Positions 4,977-62,978 of a stretch of 64,000 nt of DNA are shown in pieces. The stretch lies in contig SVKB01000011.1 in the NCBI GenBank assembly GCA_015068665.1, forward strand, positions 4,858 to 68,857. The letters run 5' to 3'. Position 1 is the first letter of the stretch. Every line of letters starts with the position of its first letter. The notes beneath the pieces are model-generated. The model was not told the DNA's origin and made no database searches. It saw only the letters and a program-made list of their open reading frames with translations. Source of the DNA: Oscillospiraceae bacterium. Its GTDB lineage: Bacteria; Bacillota; Clostridia; UMGS1840; HGM11507. Made by a program: the position numbers and the translations under genes.

Positions 4977-5050
4977 GCGGGTGTAGTTCAATGGTAGAAT
5001 CTCAGCCTTCCAAGCTGATTGCGTGGGTTCGATTCCCATCACCCGCTCCA
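4977..5050 (+). tRNA. tRNA-Gly (anticodon UCC), CCA encoded
   Basis: Hand-folded cloverleaf: acceptor GCGGGTG/CACCCGC, anticodon loop CTTCCAA, T-loop TTCGATT. Confidence 0.9.
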
Positions 5051-5054
5051 ATGT

Positions 5055-5131
<77 letters not shown>

Positions 5132-5138
5132 CTTATAT

Positions 5139-5216
5139 GGTGGGTATAGCTCAGCTGGTTAGAGCACCAGATTGTGGTCCTGGGGGTCGTCGGTTCGAAA
5201 CCGACTACCCACCCCA
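5139..5216 (+). tRNA. tRNA-His (anticodon GUG) with encoded G-1, CCA encoded
   Basis: An extra 5-prime G lies opposite discriminator C. Acceptor GTGGGTA/TACCCAC, anticodon loop TTGTGGT, T-loop TTCGAAA. Confidence 0.85.
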
Positions 5217-5245
5217 AATAAAACTCACCGAAAATATGATGTCGT

Positions 5246-5321
5246 TGGGATGTAGCCAAGTGGTAAGGCACAGGACTTTGACTCCTGCATTTCGCTGGTT
5301 CGAGCCCAGCCATCCCAGCCA
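5246..5321 (+). tRNA. tRNA-Gln (anticodon UUG), CCA encoded
   Basis: Acceptor TGGGATG/CATCCCA, anticodon stem CAGGA/TCCTG with loop CTTTGAC, T-loop TTCGAGC. Confidence 0.9.
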
Positions 5322-5340
5322 TTTTTTTTAAACTTAATAT

Positions 5341-5416
5341 GGGCCATTAGCTCAGTCGGCAGAGCACTTGACTTTTAATCAAGGTGTCCGCGGTTCGAAT
5401 CCGCGATGGCTCACCA
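5341..5416 (+). tRNA. tRNA-Lys (anticodon UUU), CCA encoded
   Basis: Acceptor GGGCCAT/ATGGCTC, anticodon stem CTTGA/TCAAG with loop CTTTTAA, T-loop TTCGAAT. Confidence 0.9.
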
Positions 5417-11398: not shown

Positions 11399-11872
11399 AA
11401 CCAGAAGTCAGGTGCGAAGGAAGGCAAGCATGACATATAAATGCAGAATTCAGAGTGCAGAATGCAAAATGATATGCCGCAGGCGGCATAGTGAATTGCA
11501 CCTTACGGTGCGTGAATTGTTATCTATTCGATAACATGAATTGATTTTTACAAATCATGAATTGTTGACTTATGTCAACATTAAGGATAGGACGGATATG
11601 CCATTCGGCATCCGTCCTTTTCTCGTTCCGCAGGAACATATCGAGTGCGAAGCACATATCGAGCAATTTTAATTGCATATCGAGTTTTGCCTTGGCAAAA
11701 CATATCGAAAATCCGAAGGATTTATATCTTATATCTCATCCCTCCTTTTCTTGTTCCGAAGGAACATATCGAGTGCGAAGCACATATCGAGCAATTTTAA
11801 TTGCATATCGAGTTTTGCTTTAGCAAAACATATCGAAAATCCGAAGGATTTATATCTTATATCTCATCCGCC
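11399..11872 (+). repeat. C composite repeat (AGGAA/TGCAGAAT words, TGAATTG bead array, P hairpin, tandem pair of CATATCGAG bead arrays)
   Basis: Starts at the tetR stop codon. TGAATTG occurs 4 times (11492-11570), separated by hairpins CACCTTACGGTG, TTATCTATTCGATAA, ATTTTTACAAAT and TTGACTTATGTCAA. P hairpin at 11589-11618 is followed by TTTTCTCG. The same composite recurs at 39831, 42364, 52326(-) and 62644(-). Confidence 0.85.
11618..11872 (+). repeat. Two tandem CATATCGAG bead arrays (period 128 nt)
   Basis: Each copy is hairpin TTCCNNNGGAA, CATATCGAG, TGCGAAGCA, CATATCGAG, CAATTTTAATTG, CATATCGAG, TTTTGCYTTRGCAAAA, CATATCGAA, AATCCGAAGGATT, then the tail ATATCTTATATCTCATCC. The first CATATCGAG is at 11637 in copy 1 and 11765 in copy 2. 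Confidence 0.85.
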
Positions 11873-13953: not shown

Positions 13954-14829
13954 CTATCTTGCCTTGGGATGGGCATTTTTATAAATCTGGGTAATACGGC
14001 TGTTGGTAAAGTTATTATAAATCTGGGTAGTGGAAATATCCTTATGCCCCAGCATCTGCTGAATGGACTTTAAATCCGCACCGTTCTGGATAAGGTGAGC
14101 CGCAAAGGAATGTCTTAAGGTATTTGGAGTTATCTCCTTTTTGATTCTGGCAGCCTTTACATATTCCTTTATAACCTTCCAGAAGCCCTGTCTTGTGATG
14201 GGCTGACCGTTCACATTTACAAAAATAAATCCCTCTTCGGTAAACATATTTTTATGCCTTTTTATATAAAGCTTTAAAATATCAATTGCCTCGTCGTGAA
14301 GGGGTATAACCCTCTTGGTGCCGTTGCCGCTGCAGGAAATATATCCCACCTTAATATTTATATCCTTGTTTTTAAGGCTGATAAGCTCGGAAACACGGAT
14401 TCCCGTAGCATACAAAACCTCGAGCATAGCCTTATCGCGAAGCCCCTTGAAGGTGGTGATATCCGGCTGGGAAAACAGCTTATCGATTTCACGCCCGGTA
14501 AGAACCCCGGGGATTTTTCTTACATTTTTATTGTATCTGATACCCTCCGAAGGATTGGTATCAATAACACTTTCATCATACAAAAAACCGTAAAATGCCT
14601 TCAGGGAGGCAACATTTCTTGAAACGGTGGAGGGAGCCTTACCAAGCTCTTTAAGATAGCTTAAATATTCATTAAGGTCATCCTTTTTTACCGTAAGGTA
14701 ATCTATACCGTTTTTCAAAACATATTCTTCATATTGCTTAAGATCCCGCCTGTAGGACATTAAGGTGTTTTCACTTAAATTTTTTTCCTCGTAGAGATAG
14801 TCTATAAACGAGGACAGCATTTCGTTCAT
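13954..14829 (-). CDS. xerD: Site-specific tyrosine recombinase XerD/XerC family
   Basis: SAM-like N-domain (FIDYLYEEKNLSENTLMSYRRDL) and catalytic-domain residues ...TGIRVSEL..., HTLRHSFAAHL, LGHKDISTTQIY. Start moved to the ATG at 14829 behind AGAGG. Housekeeping context (spoIIM-xerD-dac). Confidence 0.85.
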   Translation of the reverse strand: MNEMLSSFIDYLYEEKNLSENTLMSYRRDLKQYEEYVLKNGIDYLTVKKDDLNEYLSYLKELGKAPSTVSRNVASLKAFYGFLYDESVIDTNPSEGIRYNKNVRKIPGVLTGREIDKLFSQPDITTFKGLRDKAMLEVLYATGIRVSELISLKNKDINIKVGYISCSGNGTKRVIPLHDEAIDILKLYIKRHKNMFTEEGFIFVNVNGQPITRQGFWKVIKEYVKAARIKKEITPNTLRHSFAAHLIQNGADLKSIQQMLGHKDISTTQIYNNFTNSRITQIYKNAHPKAR

Positions 14830-14951
14830 TTTTAAACCTCTTTTGTTCTTATTAATCAACCAACCGACAACAATGAAAAAGCCTGTCTTTAAGCGGTTGA
14901 GGAGAGATAACTAAATTTTATGCTATTTATGGCGTTTTGTCAAGTATTATG

Positions 14952-15673: not shown

Positions 15674-15925
15674 TAAAACAATTCAGAGGGGATAGGAAAA
15701 AATCTTCAGAATGGATAAACTTAGCCAAAATCTTTGATTTTGGGTCACCCGAAGGCGTATTAGATACGTCGAGTGGCTAAGTTTATTCATAACCAAAAAC
15801 TTAAATTTTAAAGATTTTTCTAAAATCTTTACCTCTTTAATGGATAACTTGATAAGTTTCTCTATCAAAATCGTTGATACATCTTGTTTTTGGTGGTCTG
15901 GAGTTTTTTTACATTCCCGTTTTTA
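15674..15925 (-). repeat. S element copy 1 (body), 3-prime UTR of the 1291-aa gene
   Basis: Near-identical to 25032-25282 and inverse to 19870-20146. Contains nested hairpins (outer GGATAAACTTAGCC/GGCTAAGTTTATTC, AAAATCTTTGATTTT, CGTATTAGATACG, AGATTTTTCTAAAATCT, ACCAAAAAC..GTTTTTGGT). Confidence 0.85.
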
Positions 15926-19869: not shown

Positions 19870-20146
19870 AAAAATGGGGATGTAAAAAAACTCCAGACCA
19901 CCAAAAACAAGATTTATCAACGATTTTGATAGAGAAACTTATCAAATTAGCCGTCGAAGAGCTATCCGACGGCTAACTATTAAAAAGGTAAAGATTTTAG
20001 AAAAATCTTTAAAATTTAAGTTTTTGGTTATGAATAAACTTAGCCGCTCGACGTATCTAATACGCCTTCGGGTGACCCAAAATCAAAGATTTTGGCTAAG
20101 TTTATCCATTCTGAAGATTTTTTCCTATCCCCTCTGAATTGTTTTA
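19870..20146 (+). repeat. S element copy 2 (body), inverted relative to copies 1 and 3
   Basis: Reverse complement of the S1/S3 body. Carries an additional 22-nt TA-flanked palindrome at 19951-19972. Confidence 0.85.
19951..19972. mobile_element. Minimal TA-flanked palindromic insertion (fused MITE ends)
   Basis: TA-GCCGTCGAAGAGCTATCCGACGGC-TA. It is absent from the equivalent position of S1 and S3 (which have a single TTA there). Its sequence equals the outer part of the 52536-52809 MITE terminal repeats. Confidence 0.5.
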
Positions 20147-25031: not shown

Positions 25032-25282
25032 TAAAACAATTCAGAGGGGATAGGAAAAAATCTTCAGAATGGATAAACTTAGCCAAAATCTTTGATTTTG
25101 GGTCACCCGAAGGCGTATTAGATACGTCGAGTGGCTAAGTTTATTCATAACCAAAAACTTAAATTTTAAAGATTTTTCTAAAATCTTTACCTTTTTAATG
25201 GTTAATTTGATAAGTTTCTCTATCAAAATCGTTGACACATCTTGTTTTTGGTGGTCTGGAGTTTTTTACATTCCCGTTTTTA
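25032..25282 (-). repeat. S element copy 3 (body), 3-prime UTR of rny
   Basis: Begins 1 nt after the rny stop codon. Its shadow ORF 25041..25238 differs from the S1 shadow ORF 15683..15868 at only 2 of 60 codons. Confidence 0.85.
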
Positions 25283-33144: not shown

Positions 33145-33967
33145 AAGTAAAAAGCGTAAAAAAAGCGTTAAAATTCCCCGGACCATGCAAAGCAATATAT
33201 ATATAAAGAAAGCGATGTACTTATTCCGTAATTAAATGTTAAAGGCGCTTGATAAAATAAGGAATAAATCGCAAAGCGATTTATGGAATTAAAAGCTTTG
33301 CATTTTGAACGAAAATCCCCTCTCGATGTATTTAATACACCTTCGGGTGATTTTCGTTCAATCCAAGAAATTTTTCCTGCTTTTCGTTTGATATTGGCGG
33401 CATCGAGCCACCAATATCAAAAAAAGCGTAAAATCAACAAACCATGTAAAGCAAAATAATATAAATAGAAAATGTGTCTGTATCATATACAGGCACATTT
33501 ATTTGTAGTTTACATTACTATATTAAGGTATAAATTTGCAAGCAAATTTATGAATTTAAATGCTTTGCGTTATAAATGAAACCAGCCATCTGAGAGTTAT
33601 CAAAATTCGTTTTTTAAAAAATTCCAACGGAACCTATATCGCTTTAAAATTGTGATTTTTCAAGGCGGAAGGCTTTGGTAATACGAGGTATGCCAAAGGC
33701 GACAACGAAGAAAAAGCCTATTTTTAAGTGATATAGACGGATTTGGATAGCTCTTAGATGGCTGCAGATGTATCTCATACACCTTCGGGTGATTTTCGTT
33801 CAATCCAAGAAATTTTTCTTATCTTTCGTTTGATATTGGCGGCATCGAGCCACCAATATCAAAAAAGCGTAAATTCAACAAACCATGCAAAGCAAAATAA
33901 TATAAATAGAAAATGGGCGTGTCTCAATAAGTGATTTTTCACTCAATCGAGGCAACGCCCTTTGCTT
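33145..33967 (+). repeat. T-unit composite (three T-type units, R junction modules, one embedded MITE)
   Basis: Units start with AAAAAGCGT(T)AAAAT at about 33149, 33421 and 33863. They contain the 14-bp hairpin AAATGTGTCTGTAT-CAT-ATACAGGCACATTT (33470-33500), AAATTTGCAAGCAAATTT, an R junction (33309-33357) and the GCATCGAGCC-loop hairpin (33379-33427, 33826-33870). Confidence 0.8.
33583..33764. mobile_element. MITE-like element with 27-nt terminal inverted repeats (23/27 match)
   Basis: Left end CAGCCATCTGAGAGTTATCAAAATTCG. Reverse complement of the right end CAGCCATCTAAGAGCTATCCAAATCCG. It interrupts an R module (compare the intact copy at 62195-62241). Its interior is homologous in inverse orientation to 52565-52680. 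Confidence 0.55.
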
Positions 33968-39830: not shown

Positions 39831-40281
39831 TTTGAAAATCAGGAATTAGGAATGAAGTAAGGCAAGCATGACATATAAATGCAGAATTCAGAGTGCAGAA
39901 TGCAGAATGATATGCCGCAAGCGGCATAGTGAATTGCACCTTTCGGTGCATGAATTGTTATCAGCTTGATAACATGAATTGATTTTTACAAATCATGAAT
40001 TGTTGACTTATGTCAACATTAAGGATAGGACGGATATGCCCGAAAGTGGTTAATGAATTTAGTTGCAGTATCATATTTCTTTTTATTTAATGGACTACAC
40101 TTCATTACACCTCATCCGAGTTGCTATGCAACCCACCTTCTCCTCAAGGAGAAGGCTTTGGCATCCGTCCTTTTCTCGTTGCCGAAAGGCAACATATCGA
40201 GTGCGAAGCACATATCGAGCAATTTTAATTGCATATCGAGTTTTGCTTTAGCAAAACATATCGAAAATCCCAAAGGGATTT
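39831..40281 (+). repeat. C composite repeat starting at the era stop codon, with P hairpin split by an insertion
   Basis: AGGAAT and TGCAGAAT words, then TGAATTG 4 times. P left arm at 40027-40040 and P right arm at 40160-40171. Complete 5-hairpin CATATCGAG array at 40171-40281. Confidence 0.85.
40041..40159. repeat. 119-nt insertion in the loop of the P hairpin, carrying a V module (40108-40156)
   Basis: Intact P elsewhere reads GGACGGATATGCC-ATTC-GGCATCCGTCC. Here the arms are separated by sequence ending in CACCTCATCCG-AGTTGCTATGCAAC-CCACCTTCTCCTCAAGGAGAAGGC. Confidence 0.7.
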
Positions 40282-42363: not shown

Positions 42364-42625
42364 GATAATATGCCACAAGTGGCATAATGAATTGCACCTT
42401 GCGGTGCGTGAATTGTTATCAATCTGATAACATGAATTGATTTTTTAAAAATCATGAATTGTTGACTTATGTCAACATTAAGGATAGGACGGATATGCCA
42501 TTCGGCATCCGTCCTTTTCTCGTTGCCGTAAGGCAACATATCGAGTTCCAAAGGAACATATCGAGTGCGAAGCACATATCGAGTTTGCAAGGCAAACATA
42601 TCGAAAATCCCATAGGGATTTATAT
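42364..42625 (+). repeat. C composite repeat, 5-prime truncated (TGAATTG array, intact P hairpin 42486-42515, CATATCGAG array 42515-42625)
   Basis: Same module order as 11476-11750. The array has TTGCCGTAAGGCAA and TTCCAAAGGAA units and lacks the CAATTTTAATTG unit. Confidence 0.85.
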
Positions 42626-42740
42626 TACACCTTTTCAAAAATCCTCCCACCGCTAAAGCGGTCCCCCCCTCCTTTAGGCAAGGAGGGCTTTGCAATGTGC
42701 CTGCCCTTCGGCAAGCACATTATTTTTCTATATATCCCCT
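42626..42740. repeat. GC-rich W5 module and variant long hairpin AATGTGCCTGCC-CTTC-GGCAAGCACATT
   Basis: 42621-42700 is the inverse of 38740-38828. The hairpin at 42686-42718 shares outer stem bases with the AAATGTG..CACATTT hairpin of the T units but has a different inner stem. Confidence 0.65.
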
Positions 42741-42965: not shown

Positions 42966-43262
42966 AGCTCCGCTTTGCAAAGTCCGGGGAATTTTACATC
43001 TTTTTTATGGCGGTGGCTCGATGCCTCCGCCATAAAACGAAAGATAGGAAAAATTTCTTGGATTGGACGAAAATCACCCGAAGGTGTATTAAATACATCG
43101 AGAGGGGATTTTCGTTCAAAATGCAAAGCTTTTAATTCCATAAATCGCTTTGCGATTTATTCCTTATTTTATCAAGTGCCTTTAACATTTAATTACGGTA
43201 TAAGTACATCGCTTTCTTTATATATATTGCTTTGCATGGTCCGGGGAATTTTTACATCTTTC
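42966..43262 (-). repeat. T-type unit, inverse near-copy of 33170-33430, ending 5 nt from the stop of the 904-aa gene
   Basis: Contains an R junction (43067-43115) and a GCATCGAGCC-loop hairpin with an altered but still complementary stem (43003-43037). Confidence 0.8.
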
Positions 43263-49659: not shown

Positions 49660-51930
49660 ATGAAAAGAAAATTACCCTTTTTAAAAAAATTGAATATTAA
49701 TTTTAATAAAAAAGGTGTGTTCAGATATTTTCTTATTACTTATATGTTAGTATTTATGGTGCCGGCTCTGATAAGCTTTGTTATGCTTGCCGGTGCCCTT
49801 GATACAGCTAAAAACGAAGCTGCTGAGAAAAACCTTATTATTTCTCAGCAGTTTAAATATTCAGCGGAACAAATTTTAATAAGGCTGGAAAATATCAGAG
49901 CAAGAGTTATTTCGGATAAGGAGCTTACGGGCTTAAATTATGAAACCGAAAACATTACCACCCCCGAGCGCTACCGCCTTACAGGGGATATAAAAAGACT
50001 AAATGACTGTATTCTTACGGAAAACGATTTTATCGGAAGCATCTATCTTTACAGAAACGATAAAAATATTGCAATGGGAACGGCAGGTCTTTTTTCACTT
50101 GAAAGGCTCTACCGTACAGGCTTTTCGGGCTCAGACCTTCCCTACGGACGGCTTTATGACAGGCTAAGCCTTTCAGAAAGCTTCTATATTCCGTATCGGG
50201 AGCTTAATATAAACGGAATTTATGAGGACAGTATTTTATGCATTCTCCCGATTGAAAAGGGAGTATATCTTACCGACTGGACACATATTATTATGACCTT
50301 ACCGAAATCCCGTTTTGCAGGTAAGATAAAAACCGAAAAGGAAAATGCGGATATCCTTATTCTTGATAAGGAAAATAAAATTATTCCCCTTTACGGAAAG
50401 TGTGAGGGCTTAAGCCTTGACTACAGCTATTTTAAAAAGGATAAAACGGTTTACACCGATAAGAAAAGGGGAGCGGTTATAACCTGTTTAAGCTCAGAGC
50501 TTACCGACTGGAAGTATATAATGATAGAGCCTGATTCATCTTATTTAGGAAGGGTTCACCGTCTGTGGGGCTTTATTCTTTTTGGCTTTATCCTTGCCCT
50601 TCTTGCAGGAATGTTTATCATTTTTATATTTTCCAAACGGAACTATGAAAAGATAAGAAGCATTGCCGACCTTTTCGGGAAAAATGATACTGAAGCAAAC
50701 GAGCTTCAGTATATAAACGAGAATATATTAAAATCCATGGGCGAACGAGCCGAGCTTATAAAACTTAAGGAAAAAACCGGTGCCGATAAGGAAGAAGAAA
50801 AAATAAGAGAGCTTTTAAGAGGAGTTAAGTTTGAGAATTTAACCGACAAGGCATATCTTGACGAGCTTTCGGATCTGTTTGAGGGGGATAAGGTAAGAGT
50901 TATTGCCCTTTATCCCGAGAATACCCACGAGCTTTATTTCGGTGCTGATATTTCAGCCTCAGAAAAAGAGGAGGAAACCGCCTTTATTATAAGGAATACT
51001 GCCTCGGAGGAGCTTAGGGGAAAATCGGTCGTAATTGATGGAATTATTGCCCTTATTCTTGATAAAGCGTATAGCGATGAAGCTCTTTACGGTAAAATAA
51101 GAGATCTTATTGATATTTATAAAAAGCATTTTAACCTTACTGTAAGTGCAGGCATCGGAGGTGCCCAGTGGGGGGCAGGAAGTCTTAAAAGGGCTTATGT
51201 AACCGCCCGTAAGGCATTGGAATATAAATTTATTTCGGGTAAAGGAAGCATAAACCTTTGGGACGAGGTTTCCAAAAAAAATTCAGGGTTCAGCTATCCG
51301 CCCGAAACCGAGCAAAAGCTTATTAACTGTGTAAAATCGGGAAGCTTTAAGGATGCGAGCGCTATTACCGAGGAAATATTCAAAACTAATTTTATAGAAA
51401 GTCAGCCTTCGGTGGAAATGGCAAAATGCCTTATCTTCAACCTGGAGGGTACAGTTTTAAAAACGGTTCCCAAGGACACGGACGGAGAATATAAGCTTGA
51501 TACCGCCTTCATAAGCGAGCTTCTTACCCCGGAAAATATATGGGAAATAAAAAACTATTTGATAAAAATACTTGAAAAAATATGCGAATATAATCAAAGT
51601 CAGCTTTCTGATAATGCAGGAGCTGTTTCGGAGAAAATAAGCAGGTTCATAGCTGAAAGGTGCTGTGATCCTCAGCTTAATATAAGCCTTATTGCAGAGC
51701 ATTTTTCCCTTTCGGGAGCTTATATCTCAAAGCTTTTTAAGGAAAGCCGCGGAACAAGCATCCTGGACTTTATTCACACCGAAAGATTAAAAAAAGCAAA
51801 GGAGCTTTTAAAATCGGGAAAATCCGTTTCCGAGGTTGCTCTGGCTACGGGATACAGTAACTCCAATGTGTTTATCAGAGTATTTAAAAAATACGAAAGG
51901 GTAACACCGGGTCAGTTTATCAAAATGTAG
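49660..51930 (+). CDS. Membrane-anchored AraC-family transcriptional regulator with extracytoplasmic sensor region
   Basis: 756 aa with two TM segments (about aa 22-44 and 300-322). C-terminal AraC HTH (LNISLIAEHFSLSGAYISKLFKE...ATGYSNSNVFIRVFKKYERVTPGQF). Confidence 0.8.
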   Translation: MKRKLPFLKKLNINFNKKGVFRYFLITYMLVFMVPALISFVMLAGALDTAKNEAAEKNLIISQQFKYSAEQILIRLENIRARVISDKELTGLNYETENITTPERYRLTGDIKRLNDCILTENDFIGSIYLYRNDKNIAMGTAGLFSLERLYRTGFSGSDLPYGRLYDRLSLSESFYIPYRELNINGIYEDSILCILPIEKGVYLTDWTHIIMTLPKSRFAGKIKTEKENADILILDKENKIIPLYGKCEGLSLDYSYFKKDKTVYTDKKRGAVITCLSSELTDWKYIMIEPDSSYLGRVHRLWGFILFGFILALLAGMFIIFIFSKRNYEKIRSIADLFGKNDTEANELQYINENILKSMGERAELIKLKEKTGADKEEEKIRELLRGVKFENLTDKAYLDELSDLFEGDKVRVIALYPENTHELYFGADISASEKEEETAFIIRNTASEELRGKSVVIDGIIALILDKAYSDEALYGKIRDLIDIYKKHFNLTVSAGIGGAQWGAGSLKRAYVTARKALEYKFISGKGSINLWDEVSKKNSGFSYPPETEQKLINCVKSGSFKDASAITEEIFKTNFIESQPSVEMAKCLIFNLEGTVLKTVPKDTDGEYKLDTAFISELLTPENIWEIKNYLIKILEKICEYNQSQLSDNAGAVSEKISRFIAERCCDPQLNISLIAEHFSLSGAYISKLFKESRGTSILDFIHTERLKKAKELLKSGKSVSEVALATGYSNSNVFIRVFKKYERVTPGQFIKM

Positions 51931-52325
51931 AAAAGCATTAAAATTCCCCGGACCACGCAAAGCAAAATAATATAAAGAGTAAAATGTGTCTGTATCATAT
52001 ACAGGCACATTTATTTATAGTTTACATTACTATATTAAGGTATAAATTTGCAAGCAAATTTATGAATTAAAAGCTTTGCGTTTTGAACGAAATCAGCCAC
52101 TCGACGTACTTAGTACGCCTTCGGGTTCCACCCCTTCGGGGCTGAATTCGTCCAATCCAAGAAATTTTTTCTGCTTTTCGTTTGATATTGGCGGCATCGA
52201 GCCACCAATATCAAAAAAAGCGTTAAATCGACAAACCATACAGAGCAAAATAGTATAAATAGTAAATGTGTCTGTATCATATACAGGCACATTTTGTTTT
52301 AGTATACATTACTATATTAAGGTAT
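51931..52325 (+). repeat. Two T-type units starting at the stop codon of the AraC-type gene
   Basis: AAAAGCATTAAAATTCCCCGGACCACGCAAAGC. 14-bp hairpins at 51982-52012 and 52264-52294. R junction with an extra CCCCTTCGGGG hairpin at 52087-52151. GCATCGAGCC-loop hairpin at about 52174-52220. Confidence 0.8.
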
Positions 52326-52899
52326 AAATCCTTCGGATTGTCGATATGTTTTGCTAAAGGCAAAACTCGATATGCAATTAAAATTGCTCGATATGTGCTT
52401 CGCACTCGATATGTTGCCTTTCGGCAACAAGAAAAAAGGACGGATGCCGAATGGCATATCCGTCCTATCCTTAATGTTGACATAAGTCAACAATTCATGA
52501 TTTTTTTAAAATCAATTCATGTTATCGAATTGATAGCCGTCGGAGAGCTATCCGAACTCGCCTCAAACCCTTAAAAATAGGCTTTTTCTTTGTTGTCGGT
52601 TTCGATATACCTTGTATTATCAAAACCTTCCGCCTTGAAAAATCACAATTTTAAAGGGTTATAGGTTCTATAAGAATTTTTAAATTAGGAAATTTTTAGA
52701 TAGAATGAGGCAAAAACGCAGGTAATATTTCGGATATTACCGAGGATTTTAACGATATTATATCAAAAATTTACAATTTAAAAACGAGTTCGGATAACTT
52801 TCCGACGGCTACCAATTCACGCACCGCAAGGTGCAATTCACTATGCCGCTTGCGGCATATCATTCTGCATTCTGCACTCTGAATTCTGCATTTATAATT
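52326..52899 (-). repeat. C composite repeat (inverse), co-oriented with and abutting the stop of the HAD gene, interrupted by a MITE
   Basis: On the plus strand: a complete 5-unit CTCGATATG array at 52326-52437, P at 52437-52467, then the CAATTCA array interrupted at 52536-52809, then ATTCTGCA words up to 52899. Confidence 0.85.
52536..52809. mobile_element. MITE-like element, ~25-nt terminal inverted repeats, flanked by TA
   Basis: TA-GCCGTCGGAGAGCTATCCGAACTCG ... CGAGTTCGGATAACTTTCCGACGGC-TA (2 mismatches). It is inserted in the loop/arm of the GTTATC..GATAAC hairpin, which is intact at 62838-62856 and 11519-11536. No ORF inside. Confidence 0.6.
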
Positions 52900-53457
52900 T
52901 CATTCCTTCCACTTAACAATCCTGTCCCCTTTGACAAGATAGGCATTTTCCGAAATTTCTGCAAGGGGAGAATCGGAATAAGAATCCGAATAAAAGTTTT
53001 CTATTCTTTCATTGCATATTGCCTTAAATCTTACCACCTTTTCCTCACCGTAGCAGTTAAGACCGTCATATTTTCCGGTATACTTATCCACTCTTGATGC
53101 TTCAAGGCTTTTTATTCCGATGCTTTGGCATATTGGCTTTAATAAAAATTCAGGAGAAGCAGATATTATCATATCATTCTCTGCCTGAATATCAAAATAC
53201 CAGCTTTTTAAATTTCTCTTATGCTCCTTCCAGAAGGAAACAATATGGGAATCAATATCCTTTATTCCCTTAAAGAATATGTAAAATTTCTCTTTGAACT
53301 GTGTTTTATTTACTATTCCCAAAATAAATTTTAAAAACCAGTAGCCCTGATAGGGTAAGAATCTTATAATAAGCGGGAATTTCTTCAAGCTGTAGAAATA
53401 AAAATCCCTTGTACTGTCACCCTTATAAATAGTATTGTCAAAATCGTAAACGTTCAT
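52900..53457 (-). CDS. HAD-superfamily hydrolase (subfamily IB-like)
   Basis: MNVYDFDNTIY (DxDxT motif) behind GAGG. 185 aa. The track start at 53469 is 4 codons longer. Confidence 0.75.
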   Translation of the reverse strand: MNVYDFDNTIYKGDSTRDFYFYSLKKFPLIIRFLPYQGYWFLKFILGIVNKTQFKEKFYIFFKGIKDIDSHIVSFWKEHKRNLKSWYFDIQAENDMIISASPEFLLKPICQSIGIKSLEASRVDKYTGKYDGLNCYGEEKVVRFKAICNERIENFYSDSYSDSPLAEISENAYLVKGDRIVKWKE

Positions 53458-59128: not shown

Positions 59129-59150
59129 AAACCCTGAAATTCTGGGTAGC

Positions 59151-59232
59151 GGGAGGCAAAAACGCAGGGAGTATCAGGATATTTCCGAGGCTTTTAACGA
59201 AGTAATATCGGAAATTTACAATTTTAAAGAAG
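59151..59232 (+). repeat. Solo fragment homologous to the interior of the 52536-52809 MITE
   Basis: GAGGCAAAAACGCAGG..CCGAGG(C/A)TTTTAACGA..AAATTTACAATTT aligns with 52706-52788. No terminal repeats seen here. Confidence 0.5.
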
Positions 59233-62037: not shown

Positions 62038-62317
62038 AAAAGCGTAAAAATTACCCAGACCACGCAAAGCAAAATAATATAAATAGTAAATGTGTCTGTA
62101 TAATATACAGGCACATTTATTTATAGTTTACATTAATAAATTAAGGTATAAATTTGCAAGCAAATTTATGTTTTTAAATGCTTTGCGTTATAAATGAAAA
62201 ACACCTCTCGATGTATCTCATACACCTTCGGGTGTTTTTCATTTATTCCAGGAAATTTTTCCTGCTTTTCGTTTGATATTGGCGGCATCGAGCCACCAAT
62301 ATCAAAAAAAGCGTTAA
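62038..62317 (+). repeat. T-type unit starting at the yycI-like stop codon
   Basis: AAAAAGCGTAAAAATT... 14-bp hairpin at 62088-62118, AAATTTGCAAGCAAATTT, R junction at 62195-62241 (outer stem TGAAAAAC/GTTTTTCA), GCATCGAGCC-loop hairpin at about 62264-62312. Confidence 0.8.
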
Positions 62318-62575
62318 AATTCCCCGGACTTTGCAAAGCGGAGCTTTGCAGTTTTATTCGCCTTACGGCGAGTGATATTTGCTGTTAGCAAGTGATATTG
62401 CTGCGCAGTGGTATTGTGCTTCGCACAGCTTAATAAAGGCGGATAAAATACCACTGAAACCGTCAGGTTTCAATAACACTTTTGATTTATCAAAAATATC
62501 ACTCCGTACAAGGTACGGAATAACACTAATGTTAAAGGCGCTTGATAAAATAAGGAATAAATCGCAAAGCAAAAT
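62318..62575 (+). repeat. GTGATAT dyad bead array (Q)
   Basis: GTGATAT at 62372 and 62392, GTGGTAT at 62408. Then ATAACAC at 62473, ATATCAC at 62496 and ATAACAC at 62520. All intervening hairpins differ from one another. Confidence 0.85.
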
Positions 62576-62643
62576 AATATAAAGAGTAAAATGTGTCTGT
62601 ATCATATACAGGCACATTTATTTATAGTCTATATTAATATATT
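62576..62643 (+). repeat. Partial T unit with 14-bp hairpin (62589-62619)
   Basis: AAAATAATATAAAGAGTAAAATGTGTCTGTATCATATACAGGCACATTTATTTATAG, as in 51965-52020. Confidence 0.75.
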
Positions 62644-62978
62644 AAGATATAAATCATTCGGATTTTCGATATGTTTTGCTAAAGCAAAACTCGATATGCA
62701 ATTAAAATTGCTCGATATGTGCTTCGCACTCGATATGTTCCTTCGGAACGAGAAAAGGACGGATGCCGAATGGCATATCCGTCCTATCCTTAATGTTGAC
62801 ATAAGTCAACAATTCATGATTTGTAAAAATCAATTCATGTTATCAAGCTGATAACAATTCATGCACCGCAAGGTGCAATTCACTATGCCACTTGCGACAT
62901 ATCATTTTGCATTCTGCACTCTGAATTCTGCATTTATATGGCTTGCCGGCCTTCATTCCTCATTCCTGATTTTAAAAT
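62644..62978 (-). repeat. C composite repeat (inverse), uninterrupted reference copy
   Basis: On the plus strand: 5-unit CTCGATATG array, P at 62755-62785, CAATTCA 4 times, ATTCTGCA words, CATTCCT words. Confidence 0.85.

Follow-up and report, generated by a model that had tools for sequence, protein, structure and literature searches.

A TA-flanked non-autonomous element with terminal inverted repeats of 25 nt that splits a repeated intergenic hairpin, and its relatives in uncultured Clostridia

The stretch of DNA analysed here (the window, 64,000 nucleotides) contains an intergenic module of about 300 nt that occurs five times. Four of the modules carry an unbroken hairpin, GTTATC-N4-TGATAAC, at 62839-62855, 11519-11535, 42415-42431 (minus strand) and 39957-39973 (minus strand), and in the remaining one this hairpin is split by an element, e1, at 52536-52809. 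The first-pass annotation of this DNA had described an ORF-less element of 274 nt with terminal inverted repeats (TIRs) of about 25 nt and a TA on both sides, splitting a GTTATC..GATAAC hairpin that was intact in two sister copies. The sequence is as described, and the hairpin is indeed split, with the correction that the intact sister copies number four. The parts of e1 and of its host site are the following.

52521-52533, plus strand: portion of the host hairpin to the left of the insertion (GTTATC GAAT TGA), comprising its 5' arm, its loop and the first bases of its 3' arm, in the 'bead-array' module; CC at 52812-52813 continues the 3' arm.
52534-52535, no strand: the TA on the left of e1, one of the two copies of the target, with a single TA at the matching position in the paralogous empty sites.
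52536-52560, plus strand: TIR, 'A' end, GCCGTCGGAGAGCTATCCGAACTCG; 7 of 27 columns variable among six full copies.
52561-52665, plus strand: interior module 1, a fold-back with arms at 52561-52587 and 52639-52665, seen by the repeat finder, in the DNA fold and as a self-inverse nhmmer match, and common to the sibling element e2.
52677-52784, plus strand: interior module 2, a fold-back with the inner hairpin GGTAATAT..ATATTACC; missing from e2 and related to 59137-59228.
Within 52677-52784, plus strand: outward-facing promoter-like hexamers of module 2, TTAACG-17-TACAAT, by consensus match only.
Within 52677-52784, minus strand: TGATATAAT motif of module 2, by consensus scan.
52785-52809, minus strand: TIR, 'B' end, reading GCCGTCGGAAAGTTATCCGAACTCG on the minus strand; 0 of 27 columns variable in a set of six full copies drawn from different organisms.
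52810-52811, no strand: right copy of the duplicated TA target, read from the sequence.
62839-62855, plus strand: paralogous empty site GTTATCAAGCTGATAAC, with a single TA at 62852-62853 and an unbroken hairpin.

The length of 274 nt includes the TIRs, whose arms are separated by 224 nt, and the GC content of e1 is 33.9% versus 39.3% for the whole window. The A-end repeat and its inverse at 52785-52809 agree at 23 of 25 positions (2 mismatches), and none of 100 dinucleotide-preserving shuffles attained the observed 2 matches. The element is non-coding, with stops in six of six frames and a longest ORF touching it of 33 aa, and a TA lies directly outside each end (52534-35 and 52810-11). As single-stranded DNA it folds strongly (z = -11), with a terminal stem around two internal fold-backs, and there is a small hairpin, TCGG-N8-CCGA, inside each TIR. 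The repeat finder reported a longer inverted repeat, with arms of 34 nt agreeing at 91% (52527-52560 / 52785-52818). We rejected this longer repeat as the true end of e1, the extra positions being the palindromic TA plus the loop of this particular copy, which pairs by chance with the host motif; the remaining copies of the host module carry different loops.

A short peptide is encoded across the TIR, in a frame from which the start codon is missing in most copies.

In the filled host copy the arrangement is GTTATC GAAT TGA-TA-[element]-TA-CC. Removal of the element and one TA leaves GTTATC GAAT TGATACC, in which five of the six arm positions match and the restored hairpin has one mismatch, GATACC versus GATAAC, so that the near-restoration foreseen in the first-pass annotation is borne out. 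When the two flanks of e1 were aligned by BLAST to the empty copy at 42389-42444, they overlapped by exactly 2 nt (42417-42418), and these are its single TA. Set against its paralogs, the e1 site forms a filled/empty pair in which the TA is doubled and, apart from this, a single base is substituted (GATAAC to GATACC).

A degenerate TIR pattern was scanned against one genome per species for 185,579 species, an exact match to the pattern being needed, and this located 12 loci in four MAG species of Clostridia/Eubacteriales (SGB_7716, SGB_8176, SGB_1726 and SGB_1127). The pattern also found two further contigs, and only two, in a metagenome collection. The search with the TIRs for further copies, which the first-pass annotation had proposed, was therefore successful, with copies in two metagenome contigs and in a minimum of four uncultured species of Clostridia/Eubacteriales. 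With 14 loci outside the window and five traces inside it, the census comprises 22 distinct ends. Full-length copies are found in L004 (5150-5424), L005 (660-936), L008 (3475-3742), L009 (6274-6550) and L014 (883-1159); without the flanking TAs they are 264-274 nt long, their identity to e1 is 85-96% and their flanks are unrelated. Remoter relatives with the same architecture are found in L007 (2948-3223) and L004 (5436-5700), and L001 (2051-2209) is a chimera of the left half of a sister element with an e1-type B end. Seven family copies are cut by contig ends, as is expected of a repeat that breaks assemblies. The operons with inserted copies include spoIIIA (at spoIIIAB-AC), a PPIase pair and oad genes.

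The TIRs are conserved across all copies, with the consensus TAGCC[G/A]TCGGA[G/A]AG[C/T]TATCCGAAC[T/C]CG in an element of about 274 nt. The two ends do not vary alike, since among the six full copies the B-end TIR has no variable column out of 27, versus 7 out of 27 for the A end; B-end variants are present in some truncated copies. Within SGB_7716 the copies are up to 99-100% identical to one another, which would point to a recent amplification in that species. No orthologous genes common to the window and the MAG loci were found, and consequently no claim of horizontal transfer between the window organism and the MAGs is possible. A blastn comparison of the element and of its B end with plasmids and phages gave nothing relevant, viral contigs showed no match to three TIR patterns, and the literal TIR strings had no match in the literature text searched.

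A family profile (nhmmer) run on the window gave four matches, which are e1, e2 (33602-33763) and two decayed fragments. Together with a short remnant, the traces of the family other than e1 are these.

33583-33764, minus strand: e2, a diverged sibling of 182 nt with TIRs matching at 23 of 27, without module 2 and with ends CAGCC..GGCTG, found by BLAST and profile search.
59137-59228, plus strand: decayed fragment of interior module 2 with no recognisable TIR (BLAST 83% over 77 nt; nhmmer E = 3.8e-15).
14862-14906, minus strand: decayed fragment of the subterminal A-end region (BLAST 87% over 45 nt; nhmmer E = 3.3e-6).
19948-19975, no strand: 24-nt remnant TA-GCCGTCGAAGAGCTATCCGACGGC-TA, made up of the A-end TIR up to TCCGA and the last bases of the B-end TIR.

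The sibling e2 matches the left part of e1 at 82% over 150 nt, in inverse orientation. If its ends are taken as CAGCC..GGCTG, its flanks are AC and CA and not TA, and when it is placed in register with the GCC..GGC ends of e1, the positions of the two TAs are taken by CA and TG. Its two arms have five differences from e1 in common, one of them at the TA position, and the site itself is untidy, with 10 nt of the paralog (62200-62209) missing. What had been reported of this sibling holds for its homology, its length, its 23/27 TIRs and its inverse orientation; it has neither TA flanks nor a clean site. e2 gives no support to the TA rule, which in its simple form predicts otherwise.

For the rest of the family, TA precedes all 22 of the distinct ends and no consensus extends beyond it. 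In three independent filled/empty comparisons (e1, the remnant at 19948-19975 and the L005 copy) the empty site has one TA and the filled site has TA...TA. The paralogs of the remnant, at 15760-15924 and 25118-25281 (both minus strand), lack 26 nt and have one TA, reading AAATTA-ACCATT versus AAATTA[24]TAACTATT in the filled site, and the remnant is what a deletion of the interior, running from the TCCGA of one TIR to that of the other, would be expected to leave. The L005 copy is nested in another short element, where it reads GACCT-TA-[element]-TA-AATGC versus GACCT-TA-AACGC in the uninterrupted L004 homolog. A duplication of 3 bp or longer was considered and rejected, as the flanks differ beyond the TA.

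It could be argued that the TA is simply the outermost step of the element's own inverted repeat (TAGCC...GGCTA) and that insertion takes place without any duplication. The TA is palindromic, so TA..TA does lengthen the inverted repeat, and the CA..TG of e2 is still mutually complementary, four further TIR positions having changed with it on both arms. However, in each of the three independent pairs the empty site has exactly one TA, as opposed to two when filled, and L004 contains an e1-type copy in tandem with a sister element (TIR GCCGTAGGAGTATCGAACTC), the two having one TA in common. In L008 and L001 the stop codon of the upstream ORF consists of TA plus the first G of the element; with both TAs taken away this stop codon is lost, whereas an empty site with a single TA would read TAG or TAA and lead into the downstream gene with its ribosome-binding site and start codon. 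As for the CA..TG of e2, it is explicable by a concerted change of the palindromic, TA-containing stem, and either extruded-hairpin repair or selection for pairing would explain such a change. The reading of the TA as part of the element is thus largely refuted and we give it very little credence; the single TA in the empty sites of three independent pairs identifies the TA as the duplicated target, in agreement with the TA duplication claimed in the first-pass annotation.

The copy in L005 also permitted a comparison between relatives. It sits between a biotin-carrier gene and oadB, and a composite of about 556 nt carrying it is missing from the same spacer in relatives with OadB 97% and 94% identical, in which this spacer is only about 40 nt (L029-L030, L034-L039). 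This presence/absence dates the insertion of the outer element and not that of the e1-type copy alone. Contigs found through the neighbouring HAD and RNase J proteins revealed no strain polymorphism of e1 or e2, those that span the elements all being 100% identical and the others broken in repeats. In the nearest other species (74% HAD identity) there was no synteny at the e1 site.

Bacterial MITEs are described as non-coding, AT-rich sequences of <200 bp with TIRs, a terminal 5'-TA-3' and target duplications (PMC2229807). Every structural property of a MITE is found in e1, which at 274 nt lies in the size class of tens to a few hundred bp, is non-coding, has TIRs and a target-site duplication, and has dispersed copies with unrelated flanks; with it goes the TA property of IS630/Tc1-mariner mobilisation, insertion at TA with exactly TA duplicated (22/22 ends). 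We are therefore highly confident that e1 is a TA-duplicating non-autonomous transposon. That it is a MITE, an ordinary kind of bacterial repeat whose family is absent from the collections and literature searched, is well supported.

The strong fold of e1 might also recall another mode of movement, in which a Y1 (HUH) transposase of the IS200/IS605 or REP-associated (RAYT) type carries a palindrome-associated element in single-stranded form, the element inserting beside a TA without duplicating it and with a preference for hairpin DNA. The ends of IS200/IS605 elements are asymmetric, with subterminal hairpins, no TIRs and no target duplication, and insertion is 3' of a fixed tetra- or pentanucleotide. 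The TCGG-N8-CCGA hairpin in each TIR, the very strong single-stranded DNA fold, the position of e1 within a hairpin of a hairpin array and the failure to find a DDE partner would all be in keeping with such an enzyme. On the other hand, the element has true 25-nt TIRs, so that the loops of the end hairpins are opposite on any one strand; every copy has TA on both sides and no fixed motif beyond it; the majority of insertions lie outside hairpins, for instance in operon spacers and at stop codons; and a Y1 transposase domain is absent from the scanned ORFs of the window. Transfer by a Y1 enzyme is accordingly most improbable in our view.

All four of the intra-operon copies run from A to B along host transcription. 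In consensus scans, terminator-like sites (a hairpin plus T-run) were seen on the B-to-A strand only, and an outward promoter-like site on the A-to-B strand. An A-to-B strand lacking terminators and carrying an outward promoter-like site would explain why the intra-operon copies are co-directional, a secondary suggestion from four cases and consensus scans only. With these small numbers, the co-orientation would also fit selection against polar insertions. Reading the alignment by eye, we noticed stem differences between copies that look compensatory (GGTAATAT/ATATTACC versus GGGAATAT/ATATTCCC, and GGTT../..AACC versus GATT../..AATC). RNAalifold applied to nine copies gave no net covariation, with a covariation term of +1.05 and a double change in one of 54 pairs. 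At the gathering score no Rfam family overlapped e1, and the only two matches in 51900-53000 were at chance level (E = 0.08-0.25).

Perhaps, then, these sequences are structured RNA or regulatory cassettes (promoter, terminator or sRNA) that are maintained by the host and were spread long ago, the TIRs being a closing stem and not transposition signals. The strong fold, the seemingly compensatory stem differences, the invariance of the B end across organisms, the co-orientation of intra-operon copies with host transcription and the presence of promoter-like and terminator-like motifs all lean in this direction. Nevertheless, the lack of net covariation support and of an Rfam match speaks against it, and the unrelated flanks, the TA duplication, the nested and tandem copies and the 99-100% identical copies in one MAG point to transposition. 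Any secondary effect at the RNA level is moreover compatible with a MITE and not an alternative to one. We judge that the cassette explanation has a slim chance of being right, and keep to the interpretation of e1 as a MITE.

The first-pass annotation had noted the lack of a transposase gene in the window, and a Pfam scan agreed, with no transposase in any of 38 ORFs. The only recombinase among them is a XerD-like tyrosine recombinase (13954-14859), which adjoins spoIIM. In the loci that were fetched (about 90 kb of related loci) no transposase-like ORF borders any TIR. Solitary TIR matches in L004, L007, L008 and L001 were considered as ends of an autonomous element and rejected, their neighbours being host genes and the ends belonging to diverged or short family members. 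No TIR-bounded autonomous element was found in the 185,579 representative genomes, where the matches all proved to be ends of short non-coding elements; this is a weak negative for a partner, MAGs being incomplete and usually without IS copies and an exact pattern match being required.

The proposal of IS630/Tc1-mariner mobilisation is consequently upheld in part, by the TA duplication and the TIRs, and an autonomous partner with matching ends was not found. The assignment follows from the TA duplication plus TIRs only, and from these our best inference is that an IS630/Tc1-mariner-type enzyme probably moves e1. The evidence for mobility and TA duplication fits equally well with a MITE moved by another DDE transposase family, either a subgroup of the IS5 family (IS427/ISL2/IS1031-like) or an undescribed family, and the IS630-type partner was found nowhere searched. 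Some IS5 subgroups (IS427/ISL2/IS1031-like) are reported to make TA/TNA duplications of 2-3 bp. IS630/Tc1-mariner elements duplicate TA, and the TIR length of 25-27 bp seen in these TAGCCGTCGG-type repeats is typical of that superfamily, which weighs against the other families. So does the exact 2-bp TA duplication across all 22 ends, beyond which no target consensus extends, since this is the signature that textbooks give for IS630/Tc1-mariner (PMC2229807). We regard another DDE family as unlikely.

A more unusual reading is that the e1-, X- and e2-type elements form an 'orphan' superfamily of TA-duplicating MITEs in gut Clostridia that lacks an autonomous partner of the conventional kind. 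An enzyme so far not tied to TA duplication could then move them, or they could be partly domesticated cassettes internal to operons. This reading is hinted at by the lack of a TIR-bounded gene in the 185,579 representative genomes, by the invariance of one end across organisms while the other is variable, by the concerted change of both arms of the sibling, flanking TA position included, and by the common orientation of the intra-operon copies, which follow the host direction without a terminator-like site and with an outward promoter-like site. We consider this improbable.

Returning to the IS630/Tc1-mariner reading, e1 is one copy of a MITE that codes for nothing, and its TIRs of 25-27 bp would be bound and cut by a transposase that is encoded at another place in the genome and acts in trans. 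Such an enzyme, most likely a DDE transposase of the IS630/Tc1-mariner type, the classic TA-duplicating family, would excise the element and insert it at a TA dinucleotide, cutting the two strands 2 nt apart, so that filling in the gaps would leave the TA duplicated. In the case of e1 the landing site was the TA within GATAAC, the 3' arm of the small hairpin in the repeated intergenic module.

Several known systems share features with e1. RUP has been attributed to IS630-Spn1 through matching TIRs and TA targets, and like e1 it is a MITE of Firmicutes, non-coding, with TIRs and TA duplication, multi-copy, intergenic and able to enter other repeats (PMC2229807). The likeness drawn here is one of features. 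RUP measures 107 bp, its TIR is short and contiguous, and an IS630-family partner is known whose ends match, whereas e1 has 274 nt, TIRs of 25-27 nt, two internal fold-backs and no partner found. The Correia/NEMIS elements of Neisseria resemble e1 in their TIRs of about 24-26 bp, their terminal TA and its duplication, a size from 100-160 bp upward and a strong hairpin potential, and they often lie beside or between genes, with promoter or RNA-processing effects reported (compare PMC2229807). They too are likened to e1 by features, no sequence relationship being expected, and they differ in having a host among the Proteobacteria and an IHF site and RNase III processing documented by experiment. 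Stowaway-type MITEs, which derive from Tc1/mariner, have TA duplication, short TIRs, a non-coding interior, nested or tandem TA insertions and microhomology deletion derivatives as e1 and its relatives do, but their hosts are eukaryotic and their tie to parent transposases has been demonstrated. With the IS630 insertion sequences the only tested property in common is TA duplication plus TIRs of suitable length; these sequences are about 1.0-1.4 kb and encode a DDE transposase, unlike e1 with its 274 nt and no ORF.

A new mechanism would be at issue only if the missing transposase proves to be unusual. The value of the finding is mainly practical, in that this is a repeat family which breaks the assemblies of uncultured gut Clostridia and which annotators and MAG binners should recognise. 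The family sits within operons, where it can create or replace stop codons, and it supplies clean bacterial cases of TA duplication, nesting, tandem insertion with a shared TA and microhomology-mediated miniaturisation.

The bead-array module, an intergenic repeat of about 300 nt that hosts e1 (the TA-flanked MITE), is more unusual than the MITE itself. Short perfect hairpins with TCGATATG spacers (4-5 times) come first, followed by a strong hairpin, GGACGGATGCCGAATGGCATATCCGTCC, and then by further hairpins with CAATTCAYG spacers (4 times). A search of the module against Rfam gave no match. The window holds five copies.

Copies of the bead-array module in the window
11420-11730, minus strand
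39880-40260, minus strand
42390-42660, minus strand
52320-52900, plus strand
62640-62940, plus strand

In one copy of the module, about 125 nt (AAAGCCTTCTCCTTGAGGAGAAGGTGGGTTGCATAGCAACTCGG...; 40045-40165, minus strand) take the place of the loop between the hairpin arms GGACGGATGCC and GGCATATCCGTCC. This stretch is a second module-hairpin insertion, unrelated to e1.

A second repeated intergenic module, R, has CTCTCGATGTATNTNATACACCTTCGGGTG as its core, with complementary arms on either side; next come a GGCGGCATCGAGCCACC hairpin and a run of A. Upstream of several of the repeated modules lies a 31-nt terminator-like hairpin, AAATGTGTCTGTATCATATACAGGCACATTT, in near-identical repeats.

R modules and terminator-like hairpins in the window
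33270-33420, R module
33520-33900, R module
42990-43150, minus strand, R module
62150-62330, R module
15745-15770, 20050-20075 and 25103-25128, partial matches to the R module
51982-52012, 52264-52294, ~33474, ~62090 and ~62598, terminator-like hairpin

One R module copy is split by e2, the diverged sibling of e1. Compared with e1, both arms of e2 (33583-33609 and 33738-33764) carry the same five changes, among them the base matching the T of the flanking TA; the two arms have thus changed in concert.

Further variants were found outside the window. At locus L005, an outer short element (513-1068) without TA flanks has a different terminal inverted repeat, AGGCACTCGGGAG[C/T]TGA..CCTTATG, and in the interior it shares about 90% identity with the TA-flanked sister element at L004 (5436-5700); related interiors therefore occur with different terminal repeats. 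Some copies in the MAG species SGB_7716 have an extra mid-element insert of about 70 nt (TTATTATGTCTTGACATAACAAGG...; for example L011, 3510-3578), and contigs L012 and L001 are broken, at their starts, where this insert lies. Contig L032 and the empty-site contigs encode identical OadB proteins. Immediately before the oadB leader, L032 has a sequence (1-68; ..cgccaaaaaattatat followed by aaaaataacag) that differs from theirs, which suggests that yet another insertion entered the same oadB spacer.

Among the RNA genes of the window, a Gut-1 RNA (RF01706; 5448-5523, 70 bits) directly follows a cluster of five tRNA genes (4977-5413), a finding consistent with an origin in gut-associated Clostridia.
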